Positions 5,538-32,000 of a DNA stretch of 32,000 bases are shown piece after piece. Numbering within the stretch: the stretch's first letter is position 1; each line of letters starts with the position of its first letter. The notes below the pieces were generated by a model, which saw only the letters and a list, made by a program, of their open reading frames with translations, ran no database searches and was not told the origin of the DNA. Source of the DNA: Candidatus Micrarchaeum sp. Its GTDB lineage: Archaea > Micrarchaeota > Micrarchaeia > Micrarchaeales > Micrarchaeaceae. Made by a program: the position numbers and the translations under genes. The DNA lies in contig NZ_CP060530.1 of assembly GCF_016806735.1 (NCBI RefSeq), forward strand, positions 390,001 through 422,000, written 5' to 3'.

Positions 5538-5546
5538 GTGTTCTAA

Positions 5547-5924: not shown

Positions 5925-6130
5925 TGGGCCAAATAACCCCCATGTTTATAATATCGCTTGCGCTGGCAGTCTCGGTTCTCACAATTTTAATCGGCATATC
6001 GGCATATGCATCATTGGTCTTTTCAGGCATAAATTCCGAGATTTCGGCATCATCTTTTGCAATGAGGAACACTATAATCCAGGCGGCACAGGTCCCGAAT
6101 TACTACGGCATATGGGTCGAATGGCAATGA
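5921..6130 (+). CDS. small pilin-like protein (short leader)
   Basis: ATGA overlap with the previous stop (5922-5924). MMGQ/ITPMFIISLALAVSVLTILIGI. The ORF-track start at 5843 lies inside the previous gene. The leader lacks a basic residue, so confidence is lower. Confidence 0.5.
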   Translation: MMGQITPMFIISLALAVSVLTILIGISAYASLVFSGINSEISASSFAMRNTIIQAAQVPNYYGIWVEWQ

Positions 6131-6486
6131 AAGCATTGTTTGTGGGTTTGGAGCAGATTGTCGCGATCTCAATATTGTTAACCTCGGTTTTGCTGGTAAC
6201 CGGGCTTTTAGCCAATCATTACCGTTCATCTGCTCTTAATTCAAAGTCGGCAATGGAAAAGCTTTCTGCATACTATGAAATGCAGCAAATGGCATACGCC
6301 ATGGCAACAGGCAATGTATATCCTGTTTTGCAAGTGGGCAACTCGATTAAAATTACGCGCTTATCCGACTATGGCCCGGAAAACCAGACTTGCAGCTTAA
6401 ATTACACTGTGAATGAAGGATACGTTTGCGGCATAGCCGCGTATTCGGGAAAGATCTACTTAATTAGGGTGTATCAAAATGCATGA
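6127..6486 (+). CDS. pilin-like protein
   Basis: ATGA overlap with the previous stop (6128-6130). MKA/LFVGLEQIVAISILLTSVLLVTGLL. 119 aa. The ORF-track start at 5911 is an upstream in-frame extension across two other genes. Confidence 0.55.
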   Translation: MKALFVGLEQIVAISILLTSVLLVTGLLANHYRSSALNSKSAMEKLSAYYEMQQMAYAMATGNVYPVLQVGNSIKITRLSDYGPENQTCSLNYTVNEGYVCGIAAYSGKIYLIRVYQNA

Positions 6487-7804: not shown

Positions 7805-8184
7805 TGAAGGCACAGCTCGCAATTCTGGAATCTGTGATTTGCATGGTGCTGCTTTTCTCAGCAGCATATTCAGTATTCATTCCAGCATCTGAGGAGCCAT
7901 CCCAATTTCCCAGCCAGCTCGGCCCGGCGTTATTCAGCCTGGTTTCCGTATACGAGAACAATCAATCAATACATACCTGCATGAATTCAGGAATCTATTC
8001 TTCTTTATGTGATGCTACGATAAATGACACCATGCGGGTTTACGGCCTACGCGGCTTAAGCATAAGCGTAGGCGAGCATTATACTGCAATTGGTCAAGTA
8101 TCCAATTGCAACTACGTAAAAAACTACTGCATAGCAGTAGAAGACAATGGGACGGACTACATGTGCGTCAAAATGTGTGGTTGA
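7804..8184 (+). CDS. pilin-like protein with class III signal peptide
   Basis: SD agggtg at 7793-7798. The ATG at 7804 overlaps the previous TGA by 1 nt. MKA/QLAILESVICMVLLFSAAYSVF. 126 aa. Confidence 0.68.
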   Translation: MKAQLAILESVICMVLLFSAAYSVFIPASEEPSQFPSQLGPALFSLVSVYENNQSIHTCMNSGIYSSLCDATINDTMRVYGLRGLSISVGEHYTAIGQVSNCNYVKNYCIAVEDNGTDYMCVKMCG

Positions 8185-8502
8185 ATGTCGCTTTTTGGCC
8201 TGGGTGTGCTTGCCACCTCTGTGATAATAGCCATGCTTGTGTCACATGCTGTTGCGATAATGCATTCGCAGGACTCAGCGTTAAACAACACGGAAGCATA
8301 CGAAAACATTGCCTATATAGAAGCGTTCGCATATTCAAGCAGTATCATAGCAGAAACACATGCCAATTCTTCTGTATTGTATATGGATCTTGCCGGAAGT
8401 GCTTCAATTGACGGAATAAAGGTAACGCGAGAATCCAGCGGCCTTCTTGTCCAGACCTATTCCTCTCCATGTGCAGTTTCATTTATAAGGGCAGAAAAAT
8501 AG
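8185..8502 (+). CDS. small N-terminally hydrophobic protein, last gene of the pilus operon (possible minor pilin)
   Basis: The ATG immediately follows the previous TGA (8182-8184). MSLFGLGVLATSVIIAMLVSHAV has no charged leader, so pilin status is uncertain. Confidence 0.45.
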   Translation: MSLFGLGVLATSVIIAMLVSHAVAIMHSQDSALNNTEAYENIAYIEAFAYSSSIIAETHANSSVLYMDLAGSASIDGIKVTRESSGLLVQTYSSPCAVSFIRAEK

Positions 8503-10557: not shown

Positions 10558-10578
10558 GATAAGCAATATAAAGTGTAT

Positions 10579-16611: not shown

Positions 16612-16649
16612 ATATTTATATTAAGCAATGCGTATAATTATTGAGAGAA

Positions 16650-18011
16650 ATGCTCTGGTTAATACCCGTGCTGCTAAGCTTTGACATAATAGAGGCAATA
16701 GTGCCTGTGATAATAATACTGGTTCTAATCGCCGCCGCAGCTGGCCTTACTAGGGGCACGGACATATTCGCGCTCTTCGGCCTGGGTACCATAATGGGTT
16801 TCGCAAACGCAGGATCAGGGCGCGTAGGCAAGGGCTTTAAGGGCACCAGGTATGGTGCAGATTCAATAAAAAGAGGCAGAGCCGCAGGCAAGGCGAAAAA
16901 GGGCTTAATCAAGAAAGCCAAAAAAGCCAAAGCCAACTATGCTCAAGCGAAGGCCAAGGCTCCTGCAGCGCGAAACAGGTTAAGGATGCAAGCCAAGAAC
17001 AGGGTTAATAAACGTCTTGCAAAGCTCCAAAAGAAGGGCTTGGGAAATTCACCAGGAGCAAAAAAGCTTCAGGGACGGCTAGCCAAAATAAATGCCTCTA
17101 TAAACGCCGATACTAAGGCTCGTAAAGTCGCGGATAAAATACTGGGAAATCCTGGTTCCAAGATGGCAGTATCAGGTCTTGCAGGGGGAATGGCGCTTTC
17201 AGCCGCAAGCATAAGCAAGCTCAATGGCAAAAAGATATCGGGTCGTGCTTCCAAGCTCAACTTCCAGTTAAATAATCAAATAAAAAAAGAAAGTGACCTT
17301 AAACAGCAGCACATGATACACGGAATCTACAAGCAAAGAGTAACCGATTTCGATAAAATTTCGAAGGCTACGAGATATGCTTCGATAAGCAAGAATGGAG
17401 TAAGAATAGGGCACGTGCCGAGATTCAATAATTACGTCAAAACTATAAATACTAAGACAGGCACCCCTGTAAATGTCTTGAAAATACCAAAATCAGCATT
17501 CTTCCAGAAGGGTGCAACTACTGCAATTGGCATGTCGTTACTGCAAAGACACTGGACCAAGCAGATAGAAACTGGGAAGCCGAATGCTGCAAGGGCAGAA
17601 AGGAGACTCGGAAAGCTTAACGACATAGTTGCAAAGATGCACTATGGCGAATCTTCAGCAACTTCAGCCTTCGAATCGGCCAAGCACGGGCAGCTGAGAT
17701 CGAATACTGCAAAAGGCCTTAATAATCTAGTTTCTTTTGGCCTGCCGATGCCTGGTGGAAGGCTCGTAGGTGCAGCAGCAGGGAGACGTTACCACGAAGA
17801 AAGACTTCAAAAATTCCCTAACGAGGACTATTGGACTTACAGGGATAGGTCGAGCGATTATGATAAGATAAGGAGGGAAATGAACGTGTCAAAAGACCAC
17901 ACAATTCTGCATCCAATAGCCGGAAGGCACGGTTCAGCAAGCATAGAAGAAAAACGCAAAAAGGTGTGGCTTGATGCGTACAACGAAGCTTTGAAAGGCA
18001 TTAAAAAGTAA
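16650..18011 (+). CDS. membrane protein with an extremely basic Lys/Ala/Arg-rich domain, unknown function
   Basis: The ATG at 16650 is preferred (the TTG at 16641 is in the track). The N-terminus has about 3 hydrophobic helices (LWLIPVLLSFDII, IVPVIIILVLIAAAAGL, IFALFGLGTIMGFANAG). A basic stretch follows: KRGRAAGKAKKGLIKKAKKAKANYAQAKAKAPAARNRLRMQAKNRVNKRLAKLQKKG, and the basic composition continues to the C-terminus. Confidence 0.7.
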   Translation: MLWLIPVLLSFDIIEAIVPVIIILVLIAAAAGLTRGTDIFALFGLGTIMGFANAGSGRVGKGFKGTRYGADSIKRGRAAGKAKKGLIKKAKKAKANYAQAKAKAPAARNRLRMQAKNRVNKRLAKLQKKGLGNSPGAKKLQGRLAKINASINADTKARKVADKILGNPGSKMAVSGLAGGMALSAASISKLNGKKISGRASKLNFQLNNQIKKESDLKQQHMIHGIYKQRVTDFDKISKATRYASISKNGVRIGHVPRFNNYVKTINTKTGTPVNVLKIPKSAFFQKGATTAIGMSLLQRHWTKQIETGKPNAARAERRLGKLNDIVAKMHYGESSATSAFESAKHGQLRSNTAKGLNNLVSFGLPMPGGRLVGAAAGRRYHEERLQKFPNEDYWTYRDRSSDYDKIRREMNVSKDHTILHPIAGRHGSASIEEKRKKVWLDAYNEALKGIKK

Positions 18012-18095: not shown

Positions 18096-18815
18096 TTATG
18101 AATATGCGGATATTATGCTTTCCGACATTCTGTCTCCTGCAGCCACTTCTGGCATTATGCATTTGTAAACTCCGCTTCTGCTAAGTTTCGGTATGTTTTC
18201 CTCTTTCGCCACTCTGGTTATTATTTTTATTTTGCTGTCTACCGCTTTTGCCGAAATCGCTATCATGCTGTTCTTTATGTCGTCATCGCTGCACGCTACC
18301 ATATACGCTGCGTTGCCTATTCCTGCTTTGATCAGCGTTTCCTTTATTGTGGGGTTGCCCATTATCGCAAATACGCCGATTTCGTCGGCCCTTTCGAGCT
18401 CTTCCTGGCTTTGGACTACAAATACGTGCTTAATGCCTTTCTCCTTGAGCTTGGCGGATACGAGCTCCCCGAGCCTGTTCATGCTGGTTATTATCACATG
18501 GCCCCTGAATCCCCGTATCTTCCTTTCCTGGAACCTTTCCCTGATTCCGAGGCCCTTGATAAATTCGAAGAACAAAGCTGCGAGCCACACTGCCAAAAGT
18601 GTGAACACTATGACGTCAATTACGCTTGCCGCTACAAGGAACGGGTTTTCCGCAACGGTCAAAGGCAGCTTATAGTACTCAATATCAAGCGCCAGCAGCG
18701 CGTTCCACACTATTGCAACCGCTATTCCGAGGCCTGATGCTACCGTAAGCCCAACGGCCACGATAAACAGGATTATTGAGGAATAAGCTATTATCGTCAG
18801 CCTTTCATCTATCAT
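18096..18815 (-). CDS. membrane protein with C-terminal RCK/TrkA-N domain (K+ channel-like, no recognisable selectivity filter)
   Basis: 239 aa. Two to three N-terminal TM helices are followed by a Rossmann-like region GHVIITSMNRLGELVSAKLKEKGIKHVFVV. The start codon abuts the stop of the upstream gene (18815/18816). Confidence 0.65.
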   Translation of the reverse strand: MIDERLTIIAYSSIILFIVAVGLTVASGLGIAVAIVWNALLALDIEYYKLPLTVAENPFLVAASVIDVIVFTLLAVWLAALFFEFIKGLGIRERFQERKIRGFRGHVIITSMNRLGELVSAKLKEKGIKHVFVVQSQEELERADEIGVFAIMGNPTIKETLIKAGIGNAAYMVACSDDDIKNSMIAISAKAVDSKIKIITRVAKEENIPKLSRSGVYKCIMPEVAAGDRMSESIISAYS

Positions 18816-19595
18816 TCAAGCACCATTCCTTGCCTTTCTGTTTATTATATCTCCGATGTCAAGCCCGGCAAGCACTTCAGGAACCACGCACAGACCTGCT
18901 CCAGCCCTGTGCATTTTCGTTACGCTGGTCTCCTCTCTTGCCCTTGATATTATGTTTATTCCCGGATTAAGGTAATGTGCAGTGACTATTCCGAGAAGAT
19001 TCTCAAAATCGCTTTCCGTGGAGAATATTATTGATTTTGCCGACTGCACGGAGCATTTTTTGAGGACATTGTCATCAGTAAAATTGCCCCTTACTGCTAT
19101 GTATCCAAGCCCCCTGAGTATTTCCACCTTGGCCGGATCCTTGTCCACTACTACGAACTTCCTCTTCTTGCTTTTAAGCGTCAGGCATATGCTTTCCGCA
19201 AGATCGTTGTAGCCGCACACTATGACTCCGTTATTCATTTTGCGCACGCCTATGTTGCTAAGCTTCTCGAAAAGGTTTATCACGCTTATGAGCTCGACTA
19301 TTCCGGCGAGTATAAAGCCTATGGCCACTATTTTTACTATTCCGTCAAGCATAAGCAGCGGGAACGTATCGTAAAATTCGGTGTCTAAGCTCAGCAGATG
19401 GTAGTTGAAAGCGGGCGAGAGGGTCACGCCGTTTATGTCGAATAGCGCAGCTATTGTGAAATAAGCCGCATCATAAAAATTGCCAACGTAATAATGAACC
19501 AGGAATATGGTACCGGATGCCGAGGCTACCACTATTATCAGGAGCATTGCTATATAGCTCAAAGGCATGTCAACCTTGGAATTTCCTGCGCTCAT
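18816..19595 (-). CDS. membrane protein with C-terminal RCK/TrkA-N domain (degenerate pore region)
   Basis: 259 aa. TM helices flank AAYFTIAALFDINGVTLSP, which is pore-helix-like but lacks T-V-G-Y-G. This is followed by NGVIVCGYNDLAESICLTLKSKKRKFVVVDKD. Confidence 0.65.
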   Translation of the reverse strand: MSAGNSKVDMPLSYIAMLLIIVVASASGTIFLVHYYVGNFYDAAYFTIAALFDINGVTLSPAFNYHLLSLDTEFYDTFPLLMLDGIVKIVAIGFILAGIVELISVINLFEKLSNIGVRKMNNGVIVCGYNDLAESICLTLKSKKRKFVVVDKDPAKVEILRGLGYIAVRGNFTDDNVLKKCSVQSAKSIIFSTESDFENLLGIVTAHYLNPGINIISRAREETSVTKMHRAGAGLCVVPEVLAGLDIGDIINRKARNGA

Positions 19596-19608
19596 CGTGC
19601 TTCATCGC

Positions 19609-20082
19609 TTATTTAGTTATCTCGGCGATTATCTCTTCGCTTGCGCTGTTTTGCGGCATTACTATGTAGTCTGCACCCGCTTCTATCATCTTTTCCCTTA
19701 CGAGCTTGTCGTTGGCCCTGGTTGCTATGAATATGTTTTTGTTGAGATCCCTCGCCGTCAATACTGCGAACAGGTTCTTCGCGTCGTTGTCCATCGCTAT
19801 GGCTATCGCCCTGGCAGAAGCTATCCCGGCGTTTTTCAGAACGTGCGACGAGGTGGCATCTCCCTCTATTACGTCGTATCCCTTCTCCATGCTCTTGGCA
19901 GCTACGTTGTGGTCATACTCAACTATCACGAACTTTATCCCGTGCTCGTGCAGAGTCTCTACTATCCTCTGCCCTACGACCCCATAGCCGCATACTATCG
20001 TATGGCCCGAAAGCGATTCCAAAACAACACCAGCACTATTAAGATGCCAATTCAAATTTAAATAGTGATGTGGTGCGCTCAC
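19609..20082 (-). CDS. soluble TrkA-N/RCK NAD-binding domain protein
   Basis: 157 aa. GxGxxG Rossmann motif HTIVCGYGVVGQRIVETLHEHGIKFVIVEYD. The GTG start forms a GTGA overlap with the upstream stop (20079-20081). Confidence 0.75.
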   Translation of the reverse strand: MSAPHHYLNLNWHLNSAGVVLESLSGHTIVCGYGVVGQRIVETLHEHGIKFVIVEYDHNVAAKSMEKGYDVIEGDATSSHVLKNAGIASARAIAIAMDNDAKNLFAVLTARDLNKNIFIATRANDKLVREKMIEAGADYIVMPQNSASEEIIAEITK

Positions 20083-20510: not shown

Positions 20511-21206
20511 ATGCAGTTCAGGCCAAACATAACAAGAACGGAAGAGATAAAGCAGATCGCCATGGCCGACGCTGCCCTTACTGTAGCCTTTTCGATAGCC
20601 TTGGCTGGGGGCATATTCGGCAACCTTGGCAATGCGGTAGTGCTTCTGCCAATAGCTTTCGTTGCGGTTACGCTGAGCTTCGTGCTCCACGAGCTGATGC
20701 ACAAGTACGTTGCTCAGCACTACGGAGCCATAGCCGCTTTCCAGACGTCCCCTATGGGGCTCATCATAACTCTGGGTACGAGCATATTCGGCTTTCTCTT
20801 CGGAATTCCGGGAGCCACCGTGATATACACTAATTCGTTCACCGTAAAGCAGAATGGCGTTACATCGCTTGCGGGTCCGCTAACAAACTTTGCAGTATTC
20901 GCAGTATTCTTTGTAATATTCATTTTTGCGCCAGCCAATACATACTTTAGCACTATGGCTTCCATTGTAATGTTCATAAGCATACTTCTTGCATTCTTCA
21001 ACATGCTTCCGATAATGCCGCTTGACGGAAGCAAGGTGCTCAGGTGGAACAGGAAGGTATATTTCTCTTCTTTGGGGGTGATAATGGTGCTGATGGGCAT
21101 TGCCTATTACTCCCTTTTCCATAGTGTGGCCGGAATGGTAACAGAAGTAATATTCATGCTATTCATAGCCGTGTTCTTCTCCATGTTCTACAGGAACGTG
21201 CTTTGA
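20511..21206 (+). CDS. M50 family (site-2 protease-like) membrane zinc metalloprotease
   Basis: HELMH (HExxH) at nt 20688-20702 lies inside a TM helix. A second motif, FNMLPIMPLDGSKV (NxxPxxxLDG), is present. Polytopic membrane protein of 231 aa. Confidence 0.85.
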   Translation: MQFRPNITRTEEIKQIAMADAALTVAFSIALAGGIFGNLGNAVVLLPIAFVAVTLSFVLHELMHKYVAQHYGAIAAFQTSPMGLIITLGTSIFGFLFGIPGATVIYTNSFTVKQNGVTSLAGPLTNFAVFAVFFVIFIFAPANTYFSTMASIVMFISILLAFFNMLPIMPLDGSKVLRWNRKVYFSSLGVIMVLMGIAYYSLFHSVAGMVTEVIFMLFIAVFFSMFYRNVL

Positions 21207-21319
21207 AATACGTTTGGCTGCCTATAAATCGTTAAATACGCGAAAAAAGAAAAACTTAAAACCACCACTTATAAAGGTATTTAAGTCTAAGTAACGAATA
21301 ATAATCGGTGCTGTTGCAA

Positions 21320-22615
21320 ATGGAACAAAAATCCAACACAGAAGCCAGGACGACCATAGATACGATGCTTGAGTTAATACGCTCAAAAGGCCGCATAGAC
21401 CTGAACAGCATAGCATCGTCATTGGGCATAGCCCCTAGCGTTGTCGAGGGCTGGGCCAAGGTGCTGGAGTCCGGCAACCTTATCAAGATAAGCTACGAAG
21501 TCGGAAAGATGTTCCTGACTCCCATGGAGCTGAGCAAGGATGAGATGCAGGCCCTGGAGAGCAAGACACAGCAGCAGAAGTTCATAATGTCAGAGGAGAT
21601 TGATGCCGATCTGATAAGCACCGAGAAGCTCGAGCAGTCGCTCAGGGAGATAGAATCAAACATATCCGGCTTCGAGCAGAGGCTTCAGAAAGAATCTCCA
21701 GAAGCGCGAAAAAAGATAGAAGAGCTTTCCAAGATGTACGCCCAGATGAGGTCGTACCAGTCAAACATAGACGCGATAAAGAAGGGTATAAGCTCTGACT
21801 ATGACAACATGGAAAAAAGGTTCAACGATTTGCTTGCCAAGCTCGGAAAGGTATCAGAGCAGGAGCAGAAGGCAAAGGGCGGCATACCAGGTACTATACA
21901 GGAAAACATAAACAACGCAAGGGCGGCGCTGCAGGAGCTGGAAACGGTAAAAAAGAATGTAGCCCAGAGCATAGAGAACACGAGAAAGGACTTGGAGAAC
22001 CAGCTGAAGCAGGAAAGTGCAAGGCTCGATTCGATAATAAAGCAGTCCCATTCGGAGCTTGAGAACGCGTACAAGGAGCTTGAGAAGGAGGCCGGCTCGT
22101 ACAAGGGCGACATAAAGGAGATAAAGGAACTCCAGCTCACTGAGGAGCAGCTCTCAAAGAAGCTAAACCAGCAGCATTCCGAATTCAATTCCAATTATTC
22201 AAAGCTCGAGCAGTCGCTAAAGCAGGCCACTGCAAACTTCTCGCCCAAGTATGAAGAAGCTATGAACGAGCTCAACAAGGTCATGGAGGGATCAGGATCC
22301 ATGGGGGAAATCATAAAAAACATGAGCGACCTTAAGATGGAAATAGAGGACTTGGGTCCGAAGCTCAACAACTACAGGACCGAGCTGCAGAAGCTAAAGG
22401 ACCAAGTGGATGCGCTTAATGCAGCCAAAAATCTGAGCGTCAAGGAAAAGGAGCAGAAGATGTCCGATCTAAAAGCCAAGGGCGATGCTATAAAGGGCGA
22501 GATAAAGACCAAGAAATCAAAGATATCAGATTCGCTCAACAACATAAACAAGCTCACCCAGAAGATGAAACCTGACAAAAAGAGCGACGATAATGCGCAG
22601 TCGGAGAAAGCTTGA
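21320..22615 (+). CDS. winged-helix N-terminal domain fused to a ~350-aa charged coiled coil; first gene of TFF locus 2
   Basis: N-terminus: TIDTMLELIRSKGRIDLNSIASSLGIAPSVVEGWAKVLESGNLIKISYEVGKMFLTP. The rest is heptad-like and E/K/Q/L-rich, with no TM helix. The start is ambiguous: ATG 21320 has ggtg 9 nt upstream, while GTG 21308 lies 22-29 nt downstream of tatttaag. Confidence 0.7.
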   Translation: MEQKSNTEARTTIDTMLELIRSKGRIDLNSIASSLGIAPSVVEGWAKVLESGNLIKISYEVGKMFLTPMELSKDEMQALESKTQQQKFIMSEEIDADLISTEKLEQSLREIESNISGFEQRLQKESPEARKKIEELSKMYAQMRSYQSNIDAIKKGISSDYDNMEKRFNDLLAKLGKVSEQEQKAKGGIPGTIQENINNARAALQELETVKKNVAQSIENTRKDLENQLKQESARLDSIIKQSHSELENAYKELEKEAGSYKGDIKEIKELQLTEEQLSKKLNQQHSEFNSNYSKLEQSLKQATANFSPKYEEAMNELNKVMEGSGSMGEIIKNMSDLKMEIEDLGPKLNNYRTELQKLKDQVDALNAAKNLSVKEKEQKMSDLKAKGDAIKGEIKTKKSKISDSLNNINKLTQKMKPDKKSDDNAQSEKA

Positions 22616-22625
22616 GTGGTGCTGA

Positions 22626-24260
22626 ATGGTAAAAGACACGCCAAAAAAACAGGATGGTGAAGAAACGGACAAGGCACAAGATGCTGCGAAAGAAGTTCCT
22701 GAGGAGAAAATACTAGAGGCTTCGGAAAATACGCAGCAGGGAGCGGAAAGCGCCCCTTCAGACAAGGTCAAATCGGAGAAAATTCTAGAACAATACAATC
22801 TTAATGCGCACGGGATGGCCATAGGGGTTGTCATAAAAACAAATCCCAACGAGTTTGTTCCTACTTACAACGTTACTTACGAGGGCGTCAGCGACGCGAC
22901 AAAGCTGCTCCTAATGTCGTTCAGGCGCGAACTCATATCGATGGTGCCTCTGGACCCTACGAAGGTAGAAATACAGGCATATGTAGACGACCTCAATAAG
23001 AGATATGTACAGGCCAGCAAGATACTGATCGACAGATACCTGCCCAACACTGACGAGGACACGAAGAACATACTCACTGCCTACATACTCAACATGATGC
23101 TGGGCCTCGGGGACCTGGAAGTGCCGCTATCGGACGAGAACCTTGAAGAAATAGCTGTCAACGGCTCCAAGAGCTTCATATGGGTTTTCCACAAGAGGAT
23201 AGGCTGGTGCAAAACCAACATAAAGCCCACGAGCGAGGATGCGATCTACGACCAGGCAGAGCAGATAGGCAGGCGCGTAGGGAGGGAGCTCAACAACCTT
23301 TCCCCGCTCATGGATGCAGAGCTTGTCGACGGCTCCAGGGTCAACGCTACCCTGTATCCGATATCGCAGATAGGCAACACAATAACGATAAGGAAATTTG
23401 CCAAGAACCCCTGGACAATGCCGGCTCTGGTAAAATCAGGTAGCCTGCCCCCTGAACTGGCAGGCCTGCTGTGGCTATGCATACAGAACGAAATAAGCGT
23501 GCTTATATCCGGAGGAACGGCAAGCGGAAAGACCTCTTTCCTTAACGCCTCAAGCGTATTCTTCCCGCCTACAAGGAGGATAATATCTGTTGAAGAAACA
23601 AGGGAGCTCGCGCTTCCGGATTCGCTGCAGTGGGTTGCAATGGTATCAAGGCAGCCGAACCCTGAAGGCAAGGGAGAAGTGACGCTTTATGATCTAATGA
23701 TAAACGCGCTCAGGCAGAGGCCTGACATAATGCTAGTTGGAGAAATCAGGACCGGAAAGGACGCCGAGACGCTATTCGAGGCCATACACACTGGCCACTC
23801 GGTATATGCTACGGTCCACGCAGACAACGCACAGGACACGGTGGTAAGAATGACCAACCCTCCAATAGCTACGCCCAAAATCCAGATGAATGCTCTCGGA
23901 GCCATAGTGAGCCTCTTCAGGCACAGGAGCAAGGGCATAAGGCGTACGCTGGAATTCGCAGAGATGCTTAGGACTGGAGATGCCAACGTGCTATACAGGT
24001 GGAACATGAGGAACGACACGTTCGCGCAGATAAGCGACCTCACGAACATGGCAGACGTGCTTTCGCTATACGGCGGATATACAAAGTCGGAAATAGCGGA
24101 AGAGGTCAAGATAAGGGCCAAGATAATAAATTGGATGATAAAATACAACGTGATAGACATAAACAATGCTGGCTTCCTTATAGCCAACTACTACATGGAC
24201 AAGGACAGGGTCATAAACATGGTGGATAAGGACATTCCTTATTCAAAGGAGTTGTTTTGA
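22626..24260 (+). CDS. type IV filament assembly ATPase (FlaI/GspE/VirB11 superfamily), locus 2
   Basis: 544 aa. ggtg at 22618-22621 precedes the ATG. Walker A is ISGGTASGKTSFLNA (nt ~23511-23537). Also present are ISVEETRELAL and PDIMLVGEIRTGKDAETLFEAIHTGHSVYATVHA. There is an acidic/Lys-rich ~60-aa N-terminal extension with EKILE twice. Confidence 0.9.
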   Translation: MVKDTPKKQDGEETDKAQDAAKEVPEEKILEASENTQQGAESAPSDKVKSEKILEQYNLNAHGMAIGVVIKTNPNEFVPTYNVTYEGVSDATKLLLMSFRRELISMVPLDPTKVEIQAYVDDLNKRYVQASKILIDRYLPNTDEDTKNILTAYILNMMLGLGDLEVPLSDENLEEIAVNGSKSFIWVFHKRIGWCKTNIKPTSEDAIYDQAEQIGRRVGRELNNLSPLMDAELVDGSRVNATLYPISQIGNTITIRKFAKNPWTMPALVKSGSLPPELAGLLWLCIQNEISVLISGGTASGKTSFLNASSVFFPPTRRIISVEETRELALPDSLQWVAMVSRQPNPEGKGEVTLYDLMINALRQRPDIMLVGEIRTGKDAETLFEAIHTGHSVYATVHADNAQDTVVRMTNPPIATPKIQMNALGAIVSLFRHRSKGIRRTLEFAEMLRTGDANVLYRWNMRNDTFAQISDLTNMADVLSLYGGYTKSEIAEEVKIRAKIINWMIKYNVIDINNAGFLIANYYMDKDRVINMVDKDIPYSKELF

Positions 24261-24889
24261 TGGATGAGAACGGCATAAGCACAAAAAGTGAATACGAACA
24301 GGTAGTTGTCTACATAAAGGGCATAGAGGCATCTACACAGAAGCCGCAGCAGTCTTCAATAAACGTATCAAAGTTGTTTGAAACGAATGAAAATTCCAAT
24401 TCCCATACTTATCTAGACCTGCTAAGCAGGATAGATTCCATAGAGAGCAACCGCGGTGGCCAGCGCATAAGGTCACAGAAGACCATGCCTAAGGAATCGC
24501 AGCTGATAGCTTCTGGGGTCGAGCAGTCCAGCAGGGCGTCCGCAGTCCCAACCGCAGCGCAACAGAGCTTCGAAGTCCCGGAGTCCAGGCCACAGCCAAA
24601 GATAAAGGTCAAGTTCAACGAGAAGGATCTGGTCCTGCCCAAGCTTTCCATAGCCGACCAAATATCCGAGCTTGAGCGCATAATCGAAGGGCTGAAGGAG
24701 CAGGTTTTTGATGAAAACCACAAGGAGGTCGTGCTGCAGGAAATATACGGCCTGTCTGCCTATATAGAAAGGTCGTCCAAGGACTTAAGGAAGAGGAAGA
24801 TAACGCTTAACCAGACTGAACAGTCGTTATGGGCGTTGAGGCAGCAGCGCCTTGACGAGGCCATGGGCCTGATAAACGCCGGTGCCTAA
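24260..24889 (+). CDS. soluble hypothetical protein (Q/S-rich centre, C-terminal coiled coil) in TFF locus 2
   Basis: TGATG overlap with the ATPase stop. 209 aa, no TM helix. The C-terminus ISELERIIEGLKEQVFDENHKEVVLQEIYGL...LRQQRLDEAMGL is helical or coiled. Confidence 0.6.
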   Translation: MDENGISTKSEYEQVVVYIKGIEASTQKPQQSSINVSKLFETNENSNSHTYLDLLSRIDSIESNRGGQRIRSQKTMPKESQLIASGVEQSSRASAVPTAAQQSFEVPESRPQPKIKVKFNEKDLVLPKLSIADQISELERIIEGLKEQVFDENHKEVVLQEIYGLSAYIERSSKDLRKRKITLNQTEQSLWALRQQRLDEAMGLINAGA

Positions 24890-24891
24890 AC

Positions 24892-25929
24892 ATGTTCGGA
24901 AAGAAAAAGCCAAAAGTTGTCAACGTAAACGGCAAGGACATAGCGCTTCAGCCTAAGCCCGGGATAGGGTCAAAGCTTTTCCAGCAGCCGGATCGCAGCA
25001 AGTCGCAGCCAATAATGCCATCCCAGCAAATCCCCCAATACGGATCTGGTATAAATCCAATATCGCAGTCAAAAGCCCAGCCCCAGAAAAAGCCAGGGAG
25101 ATGGCATCTTTTCGTAGAAGGCATAGGCGCGAAGCACAAGGGGCTTGAGCAGACGCTCAAGGATCAGGGCATAAAGGGCACGCTCTACTCGTTCGTGGAA
25201 AGGATGATAATAGCGGCAATGGCCATAGGCATCGTCCTTGGCATAACGTTCTTCGTCCTTTTCCTGCATCTCGGCCTGCTTTTCCCCGTCGCTGCCGTGC
25301 TTGCGCTTCTGCTAGGCTTTGTCGTCTTCTATATGGGCATGAATATGTTCCTCAACTTTCCAAAGCACAAGACAAAGAAAAATGCAAAGGGGGTGGAGAA
25401 GGACATACTGTTTGCCGCGAGGGACATGATAATAGCGCTCAGGTCCGGAATGCCGTTGTTCAACACTCTGGTTTCCATAAGCTCGGGATACGGCGATGCG
25501 AGCAGGGAGTTTCAAAAGGTTGTCGAGCGCGTCCAGCTTGGCATGCCTCTAGAAGAGGCCATAGACCAGACCATAGCAGAGAGCAAGAGCGACTCTTTCA
25601 AGAGGATAATGCTGCAGGCTTCTGTTAGCATAAAATCAGGTGGCGACGTTGTGTCTGCAATACAGAGCGTCATAGACCAGCTTTCCGAAGAGAGGGTCAT
25701 AGAGCTCAGGAGGTACGGCCAAAGGCTGAACGCCATAGCAATGTTCTACATGCTTTTCGGAGTAATACTGCCAAGCATGGGTATAGCGGTAGTAACGATA
25801 CTCACTACTTTCATAGCTTTGTTCACGGTAACACCGCAGCTTCTGGAAGCAGGCTTGATAGCGATAGGTTTCCTGCAGATTGTGTTCCTGCAGATGATAA
25901 GGGGCTCGAGGCCTTCATTCTCGACGTGA
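24892..25929 (+). CDS. platform membrane protein with T2SSF domain (TadB/TadC/FlaJ-half), locus 2
   Basis: ggtg at 24881-24884. It has a Q/P-rich ~100-aa N-terminal extension followed by TM helices. The T2SSF-like core is ILFAARDMIIALRSGMPLFNTLVSISSGYGDASREFQKVVERVQLGMPLEEAIDQ, followed by C-terminal TM helices. Confidence 0.78.
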   Translation: MFGKKKPKVVNVNGKDIALQPKPGIGSKLFQQPDRSKSQPIMPSQQIPQYGSGINPISQSKAQPQKKPGRWHLFVEGIGAKHKGLEQTLKDQGIKGTLYSFVERMIIAAMAIGIVLGITFFVLFLHLGLLFPVAAVLALLLGFVVFYMGMNMFLNFPKHKTKKNAKGVEKDILFAARDMIIALRSGMPLFNTLVSISSGYGDASREFQKVVERVQLGMPLEEAIDQTIAESKSDSFKRIMLQASVSIKSGGDVVSAIQSVIDQLSEERVIELRRYGQRLNAIAMFYMLFGVILPSMGIAVVTILTTFIALFTVTPQLLEAGLIAIGFLQIVFLQMIRGSRPSFST

Positions 25930-25933
25930 TTAA

Positions 25934-26944
25934 ATGGCAAAAAACATATTCAGCAGGATAAACTTCGAGAGGCTAGTTTCCAGGAGCGTAGCAAGGTTCA
26001 TATCAAAAACGCTGGACCTAGCGGGCTCAAAGATGGATGTCAACACTTTCCTTAGCATAGTCATAGTCGGAGGTTTCACCATACTTATAATACTCGCTTT
26101 TGCGCTCTACCTGATAATGCACCTTAACCTGCTGCTGGCCCTCGGCGGCGGCATAGTGGCCGCGCTTCTCTTCGCGGTTGTAATGTACATGATGCTCAAC
26201 TATAAAATAGACCAGAGGAAGACGTTCGTCGAATCGATACTTCCGGACTATTTCGCGCTGGCTGCGGCCAACCTCAAAAGCGGCATAGCATTGGACAGGT
26301 CCATGCTGCTCGCTGCAAGGCCTGAATTCAAGTACTTCACATCTGACGTTCAGGCAATGAACAGGAACGTATTCGGAGGAGAAACGTTCGAGAACGCTCT
26401 TCGCGATCTAGCTGGCAAATACAAATCGAACAATTTCCAGCATTCGGTAAGGATGATGATAGAGGCCCAGAAATACGGAGGCGCAATGGCCGACCTCATG
26501 GAGCAGCTCTCAAAGGACATGAGGAGCCAGCAAATGCTGCAGAAAGAGGTTTCAGGTCAGCTCCTCATGTACAGCCTGTTCATAGCTTTCGCCGGCCTGA
26601 TAGCAGCTCCAGTGCTTTACGGCCTTACCAGCCAGATGATTGTAATAACGGACACAGTCTGGAAAGGCATACTCGCTTCAAATCCGGGAGGGCTACCTAC
26701 AACCGGAGTGTCTTTCCTTAAGCCAAGCCCGCCAAAGATAAGCCCTACTACTTACCATAACTTCTCGCTAGTTGCGATAAGCGTCATAACTGGTTTCGCA
26801 GCGCTCATAATGTCTACCATATCTTCCGGCAGCACTACAAAAGGGATGAGGCTCGTACCACTTTTCATAATAGTGGGCCTTGGCATATATTTCGTAGTCG
26901 GAGGCGTAATAGCATCGCTGTTCAGCAGCTTCGGCAGTCTGTGA
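25934..26944 (+). CDS. platform membrane protein with T2SSF domain, second half, locus 2
   Basis: 336 aa. TM helices, then ILPDYFALAAANLKSGIALDRSMLLAARPEFKYFTSDVQAMNRNVFGGETFENALRDLA, then further TM helices. Starts 4 nt after the previous stop. Confidence 0.78.
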   Translation: MAKNIFSRINFERLVSRSVARFISKTLDLAGSKMDVNTFLSIVIVGGFTILIILAFALYLIMHLNLLLALGGGIVAALLFAVVMYMMLNYKIDQRKTFVESILPDYFALAAANLKSGIALDRSMLLAARPEFKYFTSDVQAMNRNVFGGETFENALRDLAGKYKSNNFQHSVRMMIEAQKYGGAMADLMEQLSKDMRSQQMLQKEVSGQLLMYSLFIAFAGLIAAPVLYGLTSQMIVITDTVWKGILASNPGGLPTTGVSFLKPSPPKISPTTYHNFSLVAISVITGFAALIMSTISSGSTTKGMRLVPLFIIVGLGIYFVVGGVIASLFSSFGSL

Positions 26945-27117: not shown

Positions 27118-30100
27118 CTATCCAGGCACGTATTCCACTCCGCAGTTGCCATTTACTACCTGCGAATTGGTGCACGCGACCGAAGGCGAATCGTAAAGAT
27201 AAGCATAATTTGTGTAGTTGGCCACGTTCTCCGTCTCGTTTAGCATGTTAAGGTTTCCCGAGCTCAACGGCCAATAATCTGCAGGGCCAATGCCCTCTAC
27301 ACTGTTGTTGAGGTAAAGCTGCTCAGCCATGCTTGGAGACATGGCTGATTTGTAAAGCTGCACGTCTGCGATTGTTCCGGAAAATGCGTTGTCAACCCCA
27401 GCCGGCTTGGAGCCTGTAGTATAAGTTGTCCAGTAATCAGCACCGCTGGAAGGAGCATATGTTCCAGTACTGCTATTAACCTTGGTTCCGTTAACGTAAA
27501 AAACCTCACTTGCACTAGTGGAATTATAGGTTATTATGAGGTTGTACCATCCAGATCCCCGAAGCGTGTAATTCAACGGTATGTTACTGTTAACTCCATT
27601 TACCCATCCATGTACTTTCAACCCGTTCTCGCTCAGCAAGGGAGCACTTCCTCCTGTGCCTCTAACTGCTATTATTGGCCCGTTTGTGCTCGGAGTTGCG
27701 TAAACCCATGCTTCTGCAGTTAAGCTGTTGTCAGTGCCAAAATAGCTGCCTATTGGCGCATATTCATATCCGTTTCCATTGAAGCTTGTTGCAGCCGGCA
27801 CTAGCCCATCCTGCATTCCAAGGCTTGTGCTAGCATTCATATATCCAAGGCCAGCGTCCTCAAGCGGCAAACCAGAAAGGTAGAGCCTTTGCGCAGTGGC
27901 GTTGCATGAGCTCATGCTGTCGCATCCAAGCACTCCCTCAAGCGGGCTTGTGGAAGCGGGAAGCTCTTGAGGGTCGAAAATGGCTCCTGTTATAGTTCCA
28001 TTTCCCGAAGGACCAAGATAGTTATTCGCGTTGCCGTCTAGCTGCCACCACCCAATGGCGCTATTTTCATTCTGGCTTGGTCCTGCAGTAGATCCGTTTA
28101 AATATATCCATTTTGCCTGCGAATAATTTAAGGTACTGGCGTAAAGCTGCACGTTCGATATTGTGGCATTCGCAATCTCATCTCCTCCTGGCGGATTGTC
28201 ACCAATACCGAGTGCCAGGTTTTGCGAATTGTCTATCACCGTCGAAAGAGTTGTAGTTATCACGCAGTTATTCTCCTTGTTGCCGTTTATGTATACTGTT
28301 ATGTTGGTATAGTTGTGCACTGTGACAACTGCGTTGTACTTGACATCGGGCTTTATCAATCCTGCAGGCGTATCGCAAAACTGCCAGTTCTGCGGCCAGT
28401 ATTCTCCCCAACCAAACTGCGATGATGAACCACCCGCCCAAGCGCCTCCGAAGTCGTAAGCCTGTCCGCCACCTACTCCTCCGTTTGTTGTCGCATTGTA
28501 CAAGTCTATTATTGGGCTCCAACTGTTGTCAGTCGGGTCTATTGCGCTTTTCAACTCAAACCACATGCTTACTGAATAATTAAAGCCAAGCTTGCTGAAC
28601 GGCACCTTGGCCGCATATATTCCTCCAGTTGCATTTATTGTTGCTGCGCTGGATACGTAATTCTGTTGCAGCTGGCCTGTAGGTTCAAGCGTATAACCAT
28701 TTACTCCAGAGTATATGACGTTGGTCGGCACTCCGTTGTATCCGTTCCCGCTGTAGTCGTTTGCATTGCTCGAAAGCGGATACCATGCGACGAGTCCGGA
28801 TTCATTAACTGACATTGCGTTTATTCCCTGTAAATAAATGCCATGCAATTGCAAGCTAGAAAGCGTTGAATTATAAACTTGTACATTGGCTATCGAACCG
28901 TTCAGCTGGCTTATGCCTTGTGCTGATTGGCCTATTGCCAAGTCTTGGATAGAATACGGCCCGCCAACTATGCTTACTTTATATGCTGGCATATTATTAT
29001 CGTAGAATGTTGCAATACCGTTTGAAACACTTACAGCGACAAAATTCCATGTTGAATTGGTAATTCCGTATCCGTGGTAAAAATTGCTGCCGAATCCTAT
29101 TTCTTCGTTTCCGCTTCCAGGGGCTGCAGCGTTACTACCGCCATTGTTGAGCCACATCTCGAAATTATTTGTTCCTTGAGAGTTTAAAATCGTATACCCG
29201 TTTCCGCTTTCCATCTTCGACAAACTTTTAGGATTCACCCAAAAAGCTACAGTAAAATTGTATGTGCTTGCTATCGGTATGCTTGTTGTAATTTCGCTAT
29301 TGCCGTTAAAATTTGCCGCATTCCTGTCGATGCTTCTGAACGAGAATATGCCTTCTGGGGATTTGGCATATGGCTTGCCCTCTGTCCTCTGCAGGTATGA
29401 AGCAGTATATGGAGAAGCGTAATAGAAGCCCCCAACAGCGCTGCTCTGTATCGCTGATGTGTTCAGCAGGTCCAAGCCTGCCCCATTTATCAGGAAATTG
29501 GGCTCGTCCTGGAGATAACTCATTATCGTGTCGTTTTTGTAAACCAAGTATGGCTTTAAAGGCGTAGACGAATTGGATATATTGGTTATAAGTCCTGCCA
29601 TTCCGCAAACGTTTTGGCCAATGTCCGCAGCGTTTGGCGTTGCAAGTATATAATTGCCGTTTGTATATTCGCTGGGCACATTCGAGCACGAAGGTTCTCC
29701 TGCCATGTATATTATCTTTCCATACGCAAACATGTACGGGCTTTCGGACCCAGATTCTGCAGTAAGGTTTCCTATTATGGTTGCTTTTGGGAGCACTTCC
29801 TTCTGGAACGTGCCGTTGAGGCCCTGCTCGGCGCCTATCAAAGAGGGCTTTGAATTCAAGCTGACAGTCGTATTGGCGTTTATCGGATAATCAAGGCTTA
29901 TGCCGCTGCTCGTGTTGAGCGCTGCAAGTCCCGTCACATAAACGCCTATCCTGAAAGGTGCAGCCTGCTTTACCCTTAACGTAACATTAGAAAGGTTTGC
30001 CGTAAACCCGTCGGTCAACGCTTCGGCTTCAAATTCGCTTACTGCTTTTTTGAAGCTGTTATTGTAATAAGCGGTGCTGTTGAAAATAGTGCCGTTGTAC

Positions 30101-30426
30101 AAAAGGCCATAAAGGACATCGCTTGAATTGGTTATAAAGTTGCCCATCCTTGTTGCAGGATCGCTTTCGAAAGCTATCATTATGCCTATAGATTTGGACA
30201 TGCTTGAGTATAAGAATGCGTTCATTCCCGAATCTAAGTTCTGGGCAAAGTTCCCGGAAGCAAGGCTCTGTGCGACGCTGGAAGAAAGGTTGTCGTAGTT
30301 TATGTTCAGTACCACATAGGTTATAACCTCTCCGAGCATTAGTATGAATATGACTAGAGTGAGCAGCGTAAGCAATATGCCTCTCTTGCTTTTTGGCTTT
30401 CTCGGTATTTTTTTCTTCAGCGCCAT
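27118..30426 (-). CDS. giant (1102 aa) surface protein with several LamG/concanavalin-like jelly-roll modules and a class III-like N-terminus
   Basis: N-terminus is MALKKKIPRKPKSKRG/ILLTLLTLVIFILMLGE. Module openers repeat: WYPLSSNANDYSGNGYNG, WWQLDGNANNYLGPSGNG and YWPLSSGNLN. Module closers also repeat: GSIANVQVYNSTLSSLQL, ATISNVQLYASTLNYSQA and GTIADVQLYKSAMSPSMA. There are many N-x-S/T sequons. It overlaps the upstream gene by 10 nt. Confidence 0.85.
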   Translation of the reverse strand: MALKKKIPRKPKSKRGILLTLLTLVIFILMLGEVITYVVLNINYDNLSSSVAQSLASGNFAQNLDSGMNAFLYSSMSKSIGIMIAFESDPATRMGNFITNSSDVLYGLLYNGTIFNSTAYYNNSFKKAVSEFEAEALTDGFTANLSNVTLRVKQAAPFRIGVYVTGLAALNTSSGISLDYPINANTTVSLNSKPSLIGAEQGLNGTFQKEVLPKATIIGNLTAESGSESPYMFAYGKIIYMAGEPSCSNVPSEYTNGNYILATPNAADIGQNVCGMAGLITNISNSSTPLKPYLVYKNDTIMSYLQDEPNFLINGAGLDLLNTSAIQSSAVGGFYYASPYTASYLQRTEGKPYAKSPEGIFSFRSIDRNAANFNGNSEITTSIPIASTYNFTVAFWVNPKSLSKMESGNGYTILNSQGTNNFEMWLNNGGSNAAAPGSGNEEIGFGSNFYHGYGITNSTWNFVAVSVSNGIATFYDNNMPAYKVSIVGGPYSIQDLAIGQSAQGISQLNGSIANVQVYNSTLSSLQLHGIYLQGINAMSVNESGLVAWYPLSSNANDYSGNGYNGVPTNVIYSGVNGYTLEPTGQLQQNYVSSAATINATGGIYAAKVPFSKLGFNYSVSMWFELKSAIDPTDNSWSPIIDLYNATTNGGVGGGQAYDFGGAWAGGSSSQFGWGEYWPQNWQFCDTPAGLIKPDVKYNAVVTVHNYTNITVYINGNKENNCVITTTLSTVIDNSQNLALGIGDNPPGGDEIANATISNVQLYASTLNYSQAKWIYLNGSTAGPSQNENSAIGWWQLDGNANNYLGPSGNGTITGAIFDPQELPASTSPLEGVLGCDSMSSCNATAQRLYLSGLPLEDAGLGYMNASTSLGMQDGLVPAATSFNGNGYEYAPIGSYFGTDNSLTAEAWVYATPSTNGPIIAVRGTGGSAPLLSENGLKVHGWVNGVNSNIPLNYTLRGSGWYNLIITYNSTSASEVFYVNGTKVNSSTGTYAPSSGADYWTTYTTGSKPAGVDNAFSGTIADVQLYKSAMSPSMAEQLYLNNSVEGIGPADYWPLSSGNLNMLNETENVANYTNYAYLYDSPSVACTNSQVVNGNCGVEYVPG

Positions 30427-32000
30427 ATCACCACACTCAGGTTATCTGTCTGCAATTCATTTCCTCTCCTAAGCGAAATCGGTATAGAAGACTTGCTTAC
30501 GGAGTAAGCATTCACAAGGCTAGGCGGTGTGAATGGTATCGATACATAAGAAATATCATATGGTATCGCAGCGTCGCCGTTCCCGCTGTAGTCGTTGGTA
30601 TTCCCATCAAGCGGCCACCATCCGACAAGATTGGAGTTTCCAAGTGCCATGCCGCTTATGCCCTGCAAATACAAATCGTAATACTCATTCGGGGCCAAGG
30701 TCTTATTATAAATTTCAAGGTTTGTTATAGATCCGTTAAAAGTGCCTGTAATGCTGCCTGGATTTCCGGTAGCTCCTATTATTGTGTTTCCGCTCTCTGC
30801 TATTACATTGCCAGTGGCATAAACGTTTTTCAAAACCCCTCCGTCATAGCTTATGTTGGCTATGGAAGCATTTCTTGTGAATCCTATCTGCGACCATGCT
30901 CTCGCCTGCACTACCTCTGTGCTGCAATTCCATGTGCTTCCCAAGCTAGTCCCCTGAAGCTGTATACAAATGCTTCCAGATCCATTTATTCCAAGTGCAT
31001 AGCTTCCCTGTTTGTCAACTACTATGCATGTTGGTGTGGTTGCACCGCACGTACCTAATCCTTCGGGGTATATCCATGTAGATACTGTCATGTTCGGATT
31101 TCCTACGTCTAGAAGGCTGTTGTTGTATACCAAGCCGTAGCTTCCAGCTGTTGTATTGAAGAACGAAACGCTTTCGGAGCCGGAATAATTGCCATTTATA
31201 TATATGCCTGCCCTTGGCTGTCCCAATACAGAATCGTTCAGGAGAAACTCTGCATACATGCTGTCGTTGTTGAGGTACAGCTCTCCCAATGTTTCCGCTA
31301 TGCTTTCGTTTATGCTGGCGTTGTAATCTCCTATTGGGAGGTAATCCGTAACCACATAGTTCACGTTGTGCGGTATGCCATCATTTCCATTGCCGCTGTA
31401 ATCGTTGGAATTCTTGTCGAGCGGCCACCAACCTATAAGTTTCGAATTTCCTATGGGCACGCTGTTTATCGCACTCTTGTAAAGTTGGTATATCTTGCTC
31501 GGTGTCAGGGAAGAATTGTAGAGCTGCACGTTGGCTATGTAGCCTGTGAAATTGTATTCACCAAGATTACTGCTCCCTACTCCTCCCCCTGTCCCTAGCG
31601 CAGTACCAATTAGCAGATCTTTCAATACTGCAGTACTGGAGCTTGAAACATAATATGGCGTTTCTATTCCGTTTATAAAAATTGCAATAGCAGAAGAATT
31701 TCCGCGTATTGACACATAGGTCCATTTGCCTACCGGTACCGAGCCACTTCCAGATACTGGGCAATTCGTATACCATCCGTTTACGTATATTCCCGTACCG
31801 TTGTATCCGACTTCGACCGAATGCGTTGTGTTACCCAAATAAACTACGACGCTTGCGTTATTCCCATCCCCTGTCCCGCATCCGCTCACTGGCCTGCCCT
31901 CTTTTGTAGGTTTTATCCAAAAAGACAAGGTAAAACTGTTTTCTCTGACAGGATTAGTCGGTGCCGATATATAGCTTCCGTTGGCCAAGAAGCCCGAATA
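30417..32000 (-). CDS. multi-LamG surface protein, N-terminus beyond the window
   Basis: The frame stays open to nt 32000 (YSGFLANGSYISAPTNP...), so the start in the ORF track (TTG at 31988) is not real. Openers are WWPLDKNSNDYSGNGNDG and WWPLDGNTNDYSGNGDAA. Closers are GYIANVQLYNSSLTPSKI and GSITNLEIYNKTLAPNEY. Confidence 0.85.
   Translation of the reverse strand, partial: YSGFLANGSYISAPTNPVRENSFTLSFWIKPTKEGRPVSGCGTGDGNNASVVVYLGNTTHSVEVGYNGTGIYVNGWYTNCPVSGSGSVPVGKWTYVSIRGNSSAIAIFINGIETPYYVSSSSTAVLKDLLIGTALGTGGGVGSSNLGEYNFTGYIANVQLYNSSLTPSKIYQLYKSAINSVPIGNSKLIGWWPLDKNSNDYSGNGNDGIPHNVNYVVTDYLPIGDYNASINESIAETLGELYLNNDSMYAEFLLNDSVLGQPRAGIYINGNYSGSESVSFFNTTAGSYGLVYNNSLLDVGNPNMTVSTWIYPEGLGTCGATTPTCIVVDKQGSYALGINGSGSICIQLQGTSLGSTWNCSTEVVQARAWSQIGFTRNASIANISYDGGVLKNVYATGNVIAESGNTIIGATGNPGSITGTFNGSITNLEIYNKTLAPNEYYDLYLQGISGMALGNSNLVGWWPLDGNTNDYSGNGDAAIPYDISYVSIPFTPPSLVNAYSVSKSSIPISLRRGNELQTDNLSVVIWR

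Follow-up and report, generated by a model that had tools for sequence, protein, structure and literature searches.

What kind of machine is encoded by the gene cluster at positions 21320-26944 (forward strand) of a 32-kb stretch of the genome of Candidatus Micrarchaeum sp. (contig NZ_CP060530.1), and what does the protein at its head contribute? We analyzed the whole stretch, which we call the window, and all coordinates given here are window positions. The cluster consists of five tightly packed co-directional open reading frames (ORFs), g1 to g5. The first codes for a protein with an N-terminal winged helix-turn-helix (wHTH) domain and a long helical rod, g2 for a secretion ATPase, g3 for a small soluble protein, and g4 and g5 for two membrane platform proteins. 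An initial annotation had proposed an undescribed variant of a type IV filament (TFF) machine, with a possible link to DNA uptake. Our analysis indicates instead a variation on a known kind of system, partly described before, and not a new machine. Its identity as a type IV filament motor and platform module is firm at the level of sequence homology. We further consider it moderately probable that the module belongs to a machine of the Tad/Epd-like type in which g1 acts as a cytoplasmic docking scaffold.

The motor is g2 (22626-24260), a T2SSE/FlaI/CpaF-type ATPase of 544 aa that matches the Pfam family T2SSE with 118.8 bits (2.8e-34, cut-off 24.9). Among PDB sequences it matches the GspE of A. 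fulgidus (2oap, 8e-63 over residues 68-530), FlaI (7e-52) and CpaF (5e-45). Its translation holds the Walker A motif GGTASGKTS and also HTGHSVYATVHA, the motifs of a TFF ATPase, and no transmembrane (TM)-like segment was detected in it. The first 65 residues form a disordered extension that is net acidic (15 D+E against 9 K+R), as had been read from the sequence before. All NCBIfam equivalogs stayed under their cut-offs, with 243.6 bits for FlaI (cut-off 550), 172.9 for TadA (373) and 122.9 for BasE (1000). An archaellum was discarded on the FlaI score and on the lack of archaellin, ArlH and ArlJ genes in the locus, and a bindosome (Bas) on the BasE score. The platform is encoded by g4 (24892-25929, 345 aa) and g5 (25934-26944, 336 aa), two half-size T2SSF proteins of the TadB/TadC-like kind. 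Both have TM-like segments and exceed the Pfam cut-off (25.2), g4 with 61 bits (1.5e-16) and g5 with 54 bits (2.1e-14), so that the motor and platform operon seen by the initial annotation stands. The low-complexity N-terminus of g4, noticed earlier as an extension of about 100 aa rich in Q and P, was found as well; it covers some 95-100 aa and is rich in K, Q, G, P and S. Homologues of g4 vary from about 310 to 660 aa between loci.

The junctions in the operon are short. The g2 stop and the g3 start share one base (TGATG), g3 and g4 are separated by 2 nt, and g4 and g5 by 4 nt; the junctions of 1-4 nt that had been claimed hold for these three places and fail between g1 and g2, where the gap is 10 nt. 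The motif GGTG precedes g2 and g4, as described before, and also g1, while AGGAG is found ahead of g3.

The same arrangement was found far outside this genome. An alignment of 36 sequences of the g1 family (A3) was too diverse for a scan of loci, and a narrower alignment, biased towards Micrarchaeota, was used. With this g1 profile, the GTDB species representatives gave 77 loci, nearly all of them from Micrarchaeota (73 loci). Counting in each case the loci where the respective flank is visible, the ATPase gene is directly downstream of g1 in 68/68 Micrarchaeota loci, and the complete order g2-g3-g4-g5 is kept in 54 of 58. In 52 of 72 Micrarchaeota loci, g1 is immediately preceded by a gene for an M50 protease, and a convergent LamG gene lies no more than 1.5 kb away in 25 of 30 loci. 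The recurrence in all 68 species loci puts the five-gene arrangement far beyond chance. Distant Micrarchaeota loci, retrieved by exact protein look-up, show the identical cassette, and a Mancarchaeum contig has the order M50-g1-ATPase with a g1 that is 66% identical. The motor and platform operon is a core, phylum-wide feature of Micrarchaeota, and nearly all of them carry it.

Some variation within the phylum was also apparent. The rod of g1 is doubled in three loci (L061, L066 and L070, with a g1 of about 718 aa). In three Fermentimicrarchaeum-like genomes (L079, L080 and L083) g1 is split into a gene for the wHTH with a short coil and a second coil gene, and g3 is too diverged for detection. 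Two JGI assemblies cover one and the same locus (L009 and L010), and in one of them (L010, 5404-7999) g1 and g2 are fragmented and g3-g5 intact, which could be due to frameshift sequencing errors or to decay.

This constancy bears on the idea that g1 is an unrelated cytoskeletal or SMC-like protein that has come to lie beside pilus genes by chance. Homologues have been automatically annotated as 'chromosome segregation ATPase', and there are weak NCBIfam matches to the coiled coils of SMC and Rad50. However, g1 lacks an ATPase head and its SMC score is 38.7 bits, against a cut-off of 567, over coiled-coil stretches only. The adjacency to the motor, in the 68 Micrarchaeota loci and in other phyla, contradicts a chance neighbourhood, and we find this idea scarcely credible. 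Among the outcomes that the initial annotation had named as speaking against its reading were a random distribution of g1 homologues with respect to filament genes and a match of g1 to a known unrelated family such as SMC or intermediate filament proteins. Neither of these was obtained: g1 is tied to the ATPase, in Micrarchaeota as in the Woesearchaeota- and Aenigmatarchaeota-type loci described below, and no match to those families rises over threshold.

By profile comparison, g1 is the Micrarchaeota member of a large uncharacterised DPANN family. A search of 1.84 billion cluster representatives yielded 2602 proteins with E<=1e-3, of which 98 had E<=1e-30. The best 150 of the 2602 all start with the wHTH, and most of these are full-length, with about 380-440 aa; longer members (500-720 aa) have extra coiled coil alone, without any informative added domain. 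The Micrarchaeota g1 profile aligns with that of a Woesearchaeota/Nanoarchaeia group over 377 columns (hhalign 99.8%, E 4.8e-28). In Woesearchaeota-type loci the order is pilin-like genes, a gene for a giant VWA protein, the g1 homologue, the ATPase and two TadC genes, without g3 and M50. A Nanoarchaeia locus has the same upstream genes on a contig that stops inside the g1 homologue, so that the downstream side is not visible. A further g1 homologue, from a widespread Woesearchaeota-like lineage (L089/L090, P0239), was seen amid genes for a tRNA synthetase, TrmB, eIF-2B, Hjc and a histone. Makarova et al. (2019) listed a DPANN-specific 'alpha helical protein, house-keeping context' (cls.004340, NEQ484) that, matched by description, may be of the same family.

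The Aenigmatarchaeota-type loci have a different protein in the position before the orthologous ATPase, in which the wHTH is C-terminal and accompanied by a lysine-rich tail and a CBS pair (L085 1179-1958, L086 6251-7210 and L087 6491-7195). Its wHTH is homologous to that of g1 (hhalign 96.6%, E 6.6e-10), and in two of these clusters (L086 and L087) ordinary pilin genes are also present. Since these loci keep the wHTH and swap the rod for a CBS pair, the wHTH appears to be the motor-linked part. Between g2 and the wHTH-adjacent ATPases of other DPANN the identity is 42-53%, compared with 34% between g2 and the other ATPase in the window. Judging from these comparisons, the wHTH-adjacent ATPases form one orthologous clade common to DPANN phyla, and this clade travels with one winged-helix module whose partner domain varies.

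The properties of g1 itself (21320-22615) were examined for what this module may do. The protein has 431 aa from the ATG, as in public gene calls, or 435 aa from an alternative GTG at 21308. Its sequence is 100% identical to that of proteins from Micrarchaeum contigs, in keeping with a genome of the ARMAN-2/A_DKE type. An AlphaFold2 (AF2) model, built with 12 homologues, shows a wHTH (aa 11-68, nt 21350-21523) with the topology H-H-H-beta-beta at residues 13-67 and a predicted local distance difference test (pLDDT) of about 80. About 350 aa of long helices follow (aa 73-416), at residues 73-125, 127-186, 191-324, 327-368 and 374-416. AF2 and Foldseek thus agree with the winged helix and helical stretch recognized earlier, except that the latter cannot be called an uninterrupted coiled coil; it is broken in places, and two of the breaks fall on conserved residues (P127, G326). 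This helical part evolves fast, with about 26% identity within Micrarchaeota. The protein is predicted to be cytoplasmic, and no TM-like segment, signal peptide or class III motif was found in it. Foldseek gave generic winged helices only (Z-alpha, FeoC, ArsR/MarR, ESCRT-II and PCI-type), with TM-scores of 0.72-0.74 for small winged-helix domains.

Searches of g1 against Pfam and NCBIfam reached no cut-off and gave only coiled-coil noise below threshold. Weak matches to DUF7310, HVO_A0114 and PilB3_C were dropped because they were under their cut-offs, and the literature on DUF7310 and arCOG07564 had nothing to add. The g1 profile against PDB sequences retrieved generic helical bundles only (spike HR1, apolipophorin, MCP and the nucleoporin NSP1), which were likewise set aside. 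The small divergent ORF at 1779-2321 proved to be unrelated to the wHTH of g1.

The charge of the winged helix is the other informative property. Over 202 family members the mean net charge of the wHTH was -1.4 and that of helix 3 was -2.0. Four positions, T11, D14, L49 and E50, are conserved in 98-100% of these members and Y59 in 91%; W45 served as the anchor for locating the wHTH in this set and is constant there by design, and it is also invariant in independent alignments of the family. With an acidic helix 3 and no conserved basic residues, this wHTH does not look like a DNA-reading one.

Upstream of the g1 ATG there is a promoter-like element, TTATAAAGGTATTTAAG (21269-21285, +), and the GGTG ribosome-binding site (RBS) motif at 21307-21310, 10 nt before the start. 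An element of the form GTATTTAAG, TATTAAA or TATAAA is found 25-45 nt before g1 in most of 74 aligned upstream regions. This archaeal TATA-like element, situated between the M50 gene and g1, is a putative promoter, and the M50 gene is probably a transcription unit separate from g1-g5. The TATA-like box is the only general feature of the 74 regions, in which we found no operator-like palindrome conserved family-wide; the near-palindrome TTGTTAGCAA, between the TATA element and the g1 start, appears in one subclade only.

The most probable role of g1 is that of a cytoplasmic protein docking on the motor, as its scaffold or its regulator, and not that of a repressor that reads DNA. Its winged helix would be a protein-docking module on the ATPase or on the cytoplasmic face of the platform, and its rod would oligomerise into a scaffold, a stator or a regulatory collar around the motor. 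In function, such a part could be compared with the archaellum proteins ArlX/ArlCDE or with bacterial PilM/N/O and GspL. We favor this explanation because the winged helix stays with the motor and is acidic, because the upstream regions share a TATA-like box only, and because the rod has a roughly constant length in most full-length members in spite of its sequence drift.

Several observations weigh against it. The winged-helix fold of g1 is also matched by MarR, ArsR and ROK repressors; g1 comes first in the operon behind its own promoter-like element, as is often the case for autoregulators; and a protein with CBS and wHTH domains resembles a ligand-sensing regulator. Besides, the pLDDT falls below 50 in the middle of the rod (residues 180-264), where the model is of low confidence, and in at least one Woesearchaeota-like lineage a g1 homologue stands in a housekeeping context, away from any ATPase.

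The first three of these points also support the main rival explanation, that g1 is a transcriptional autoregulator whose wHTH binds promoter DNA and whose rod or CBS pair oligomerises or senses. The Foldseek matches further include the winged helices of IdeR and TFE, one source labels a g1 homologue as an ArsR-family regulator, and the CBS-wHTH variant is reminiscent of nucleotide-sensing regulators in particular. Pfam MarR was found under threshold in 6/36 members (at best about 20 bits, cut-off 24.6), and the near-palindrome of one subclade could be counted on this side too. Nevertheless, the recognition helix is acidic on average and has no conserved basic residues, and the invariant wHTH residues span phyla whose upstream regions have only the TATA-like box in common. 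A repressor would not typically have a rod of about 350 aa whose length is nearly constant in most top-scoring representatives, and no Pfam HTH family was reached at its cut-off. Membership of g1 in MarR/ArsR was rejected, since the fold is present but both the Pfam gathering score and a basic reading helix fail. We regard autoregulation as a serious possibility and yet an unlikely one.

The charge data apply equally to the proposal that g1 links nucleic acid or another cargo to the machine, with the wHTH holding DNA at a pilin-independent translocon for DNA uptake, export or exchange between symbiont and host. DPANN archaea rely on their hosts for building blocks. This dependence, the wHTH fold of g1 and an operon without pilins are in keeping with such a role, and the authors of the genome of strain Mia14 (Ca. 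Mancarchaeum acidiphilum) speculated on DNA exchange via type IV pili (PMC5498576). Against it, the wHTH is acidic to neutral, and the conserved cassette has no nuclease, ComEC-like channel or helicase. In the Woesearchaeota- and Aenigmatarchaeota-type versions, pilins and VWA adhesins share the operon, and the ATPase clade would therefore build ordinary filaments. We consider this proposal very doubtful, and the DNA uptake or nucleic-acid reading suggested in the initial annotation gained no support from our data.

The third gene of the operon, g3 (24260-24889, +), codes for a soluble protein of 209 aa, as described before, in which no TM-like segment was detected. Two N-terminal helices are followed by a disordered linker rich in Q, S and P (aa 63-120), and the C-terminal part is a three-helix bundle (aa 131-206), predicted by AF2 with pLDDT 86-95. 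The bundle opens with the motif DLVLPxLSxxDQISELERIIEGxxExVFD, in which most of the specified positions are invariant (alignment A2). Homologues were found on Micrarchaeota-type contigs only, and none was detected in the scanned Woesearchaeota-type (L007) and Aenigmatarchaeota-type (L085-L087) loci. The protein matched no family in Pfam or NCBIfam, and Foldseek gave no significant match (best E 0.75, a BAG domain). In a machine with g1 as docking scaffold, g3 would be a second, Micrarchaeota-specific adaptor, its bundle contacting the ATPase or the low-complexity tail of g4.

How new is this arrangement? Golyshina et al. (2017) described in Mia14 a CpaF-family ATPase (MIA14_0170), two TadC genes (0172 and 0173) and a secreted component (0176), placed the system (MIA14_0170-0177) in the Methanococci/Thermococci group and linked LamG proteins to type IV pilus loci (PMC5498576). 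The ATPase/TadC/TadC set with linked LamG is the same as in the window. That account leaves the wHTH-rod gene and the equivalent of g3 (the gene before the ATPase and gene 0171) out of its list of components (PMC5498576). The second Mia14 system (MIA14_0252-0260) matches another operon of the window, the pilin-rich one at 2223-8502 (PMC5498576). With these genes catalogued in 2017, and coiled-coil/CpaF/TadC loci of DPANN reported in 2024 in the account cited below, the machine can no longer be called undescribed.

A similar conclusion comes from the classification of archaeal type IV pili (T4P) by Makarova et al. (2016). In its clade 1, two TadC genes are present, major pilins are usually encoded on their own, and the locus holds large ConA-like (DUF2341) adhesins. 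One ATPase with two separate TadB/TadC-like genes is the set of the window, of clade 1 (the Epd pili of Methanococcus maripaludis) and of bacterial Tad systems. As clade 1 normally has two TadC genes and its pilins elsewhere, the missing local pilins are not unusual. On the other hand, a partner like the wHTH-rod protein or g3 is undescribed in clade 1, where the extras are FleN/MinD, EppA and Cys-rich proteins; FleN/MinD and EppA were not found at our locus. The assignment of g2 to clade 1 would depend on the statement of Golyshina et al. (2017) for MIA14_0170, a point that counts against the reading that we prefer.

Cytoplasmic coiled-coil accessories have precedents. ArlX/ArlCDE have been proposed or shown to scaffold or regulate the archaellum motor. 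Like these proteins, and like arCOG07564, a cytoplasmic coiled-coil protein of halobacterial subclade 4F T4P loci (Makarova et al., 2016), g1 is encoded beside a FlaI-type ATPase. Unlike ArlX, which has an N-terminal TM anchor, g1 has no TM segment, and no winged helix has been reported for ArlX, ArlCDE or arCOG07564. The likeness to g1 is one of architecture. Makarova et al. (2016) also noted nanoarchaeal ATPases without cognate pilins.

A close precedent is given by the loci of Hamm et al. (2024). In cluster 2 DPANN and Undinarchaeota these authors found CpaF/TadC loci that include coiled-coil proteins, which they read as nucleoporin-like or sigma-1-like (PMC11291902). There, too, a coiled-coil protein is found beside a CpaF-type ATPase and TadC, and one of the two loci described is pilin-free. 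Going by the locus descriptions in that paper, they come from Woesearchaeota, Nanoarchaeota and Aenigmarchaeota, and we have found g1 homologues before the ATPase in Woesearchaeota- and Aenigmatarchaeota-type loci. The Micrarchaeota are outside the loci reported in those descriptions, which include none of the additions of the Micrarchaeota version (g3, the upstream M50 protease and the convergent LamG), and the passages on the coiled-coil proteins make no mention of an N-terminal winged helix. In the literature we found no description of the winged helix of g1, the Micrarchaeota members, the CBS variant, g3 or the M50 linkage.

The sigma-1 comparison leads to one more alternative, that g1 is exported and serves as an extracellular fibrous attachment protein, after the likeness of DPANN coiled-coil proteins to reovirus sigma-1 suggested in the locus descriptions of Hamm et al. 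(2024) (PMC11291902). A long helical rod would suit such a fibre. The protein, however, lacks a signal peptide, a class III motif and a TM segment, it begins with a compact winged helix, and its fibrous-protein matches are generic coiled-coil ones, all under the family cut-offs, which makes export highly improbable.

The filament subunits are not encoded in the operon. No small ORF with a class III signal follows g5, as stated in the initial annotation, and no A24 prepilin peptidase (PibD/FlaK/EppA) was found in the 32-kb window; the latter is not taken as missing from the genome, since Mia14 encodes its single A24 peptidase elsewhere in the genome (PMC5498576). The likeliest source of the subunits would be either the pilin-rich operon (2223-8502, +) or genes that stand alone. 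This first type IV pilus operon of the window has a T2SSE ATPase (2223-3749) and two membrane proteins without Pfam match (3746-5288). Pilin-like ORFs follow at 5298-8502; class III-type N-termini are found in the ORFs 5298-5537 (RKGQSSIEYL), 5547-5924, 6479-7804 and 7801-8184, among others, and the operon is a plausible pilin source for the g2 motor.

On the other side, the operon converges on two LamG genes, as had been observed. The first (27118-30426, reverse strand) codes for a LamG/ConA-like surface protein of 1102 aa with three stretches matching Laminin_G_3 (Pfam, 5.6e-34), and the second (30417-31988, reverse strand; Laminin_G_3 2.1e-28) runs beyond the end of the window. Related loci likewise have LamG genes in tandem pairs. 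The 1102-aa protein has a class III-like N-terminus, KSKRG followed by ILLTLLTLVIFILMLGE, with a FlaFind-like RGILLT and a single N-terminal TM-like segment. The pattern [KR]G-ILLTLxTLVLxxLMLGE(L/V)ITYV is kept in the window and in two other loci (L001 13839-16391 and L009 12644-15316). The giant LamG proteins could be pilin-like adhesins processed by prepilin peptidase. The 1102-aa protein is a candidate adhesin or cargo of the machine, and the convergent pair would likely be displayed as adhesins.

Just upstream of g1 is the M50 gene (20511-21206, +), coding for a membrane metalloprotease of the site-2 protease family. The protein has 231 aa, contains the motifs HELMH and LDG and scores 33.8 bits for Peptidase_M50 (Pfam, cut-off 27.2). 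Its gene stays upstream of g1 even in loci where the context further upstream differs. Three tandem TrkA_N genes come before the M50 gene (18096-20082, reverse strand), two of them with N-terminal membrane segments, and such genes adjoin the cassette in several Micrarchaeota loci. The region 10573-18011 (+) has an ORF of 2012 aa, signal-like at its N-terminus and with a TM segment near its C-terminal end (aa 1971-1996), then a membrane ORF of 456 aa, both without Pfam match. The first is possibly a giant surface protein. In another locus (L001), ORFs of 2082 and 380 aa are found at the corresponding position beside TrkA genes, a likeness that is positional.

DPANN archaea live attached to hosts, and the mode of this attachment and exchange is a central open question. 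A bolder idea, which we hold to be rather improbable, is that this ATPase clade, together with the wHTH-rod protein and the split platform, forms a DPANN-specific machine specialised for the symbiont-host interface. It would build or anchor a contact structure or cytoplasmic bridge and display giant LamG adhesins, or transport host macromolecules, with the wHTH-rod protein as an adaptor for cargo or energy state (through the CBS pair in some phyla) and not as an ordinary accessory of a pilus. Apart from this, a motor clade found across DPANN and paired with an uncharacterised cytoplasmic family offers a concrete target, a complex of the wHTH-rod protein with the ATPase, g3 and both TadC proteins that can be put to the test. 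As Ca. M. harzensis is kept in a stable laboratory co-culture (Krause 2022), biochemistry and cryo-electron tomography could be tried on a Micrarchaeota g1; the culture paper of this organism does not mention pili. Our results extend the family to Micrarchaeota and correct the view of the DPANN coiled-coil proteins as nucleoporin-like or viral-fibre-like. If g1 is a motor scaffold, it would represent a new kind of type IV filament accessory.

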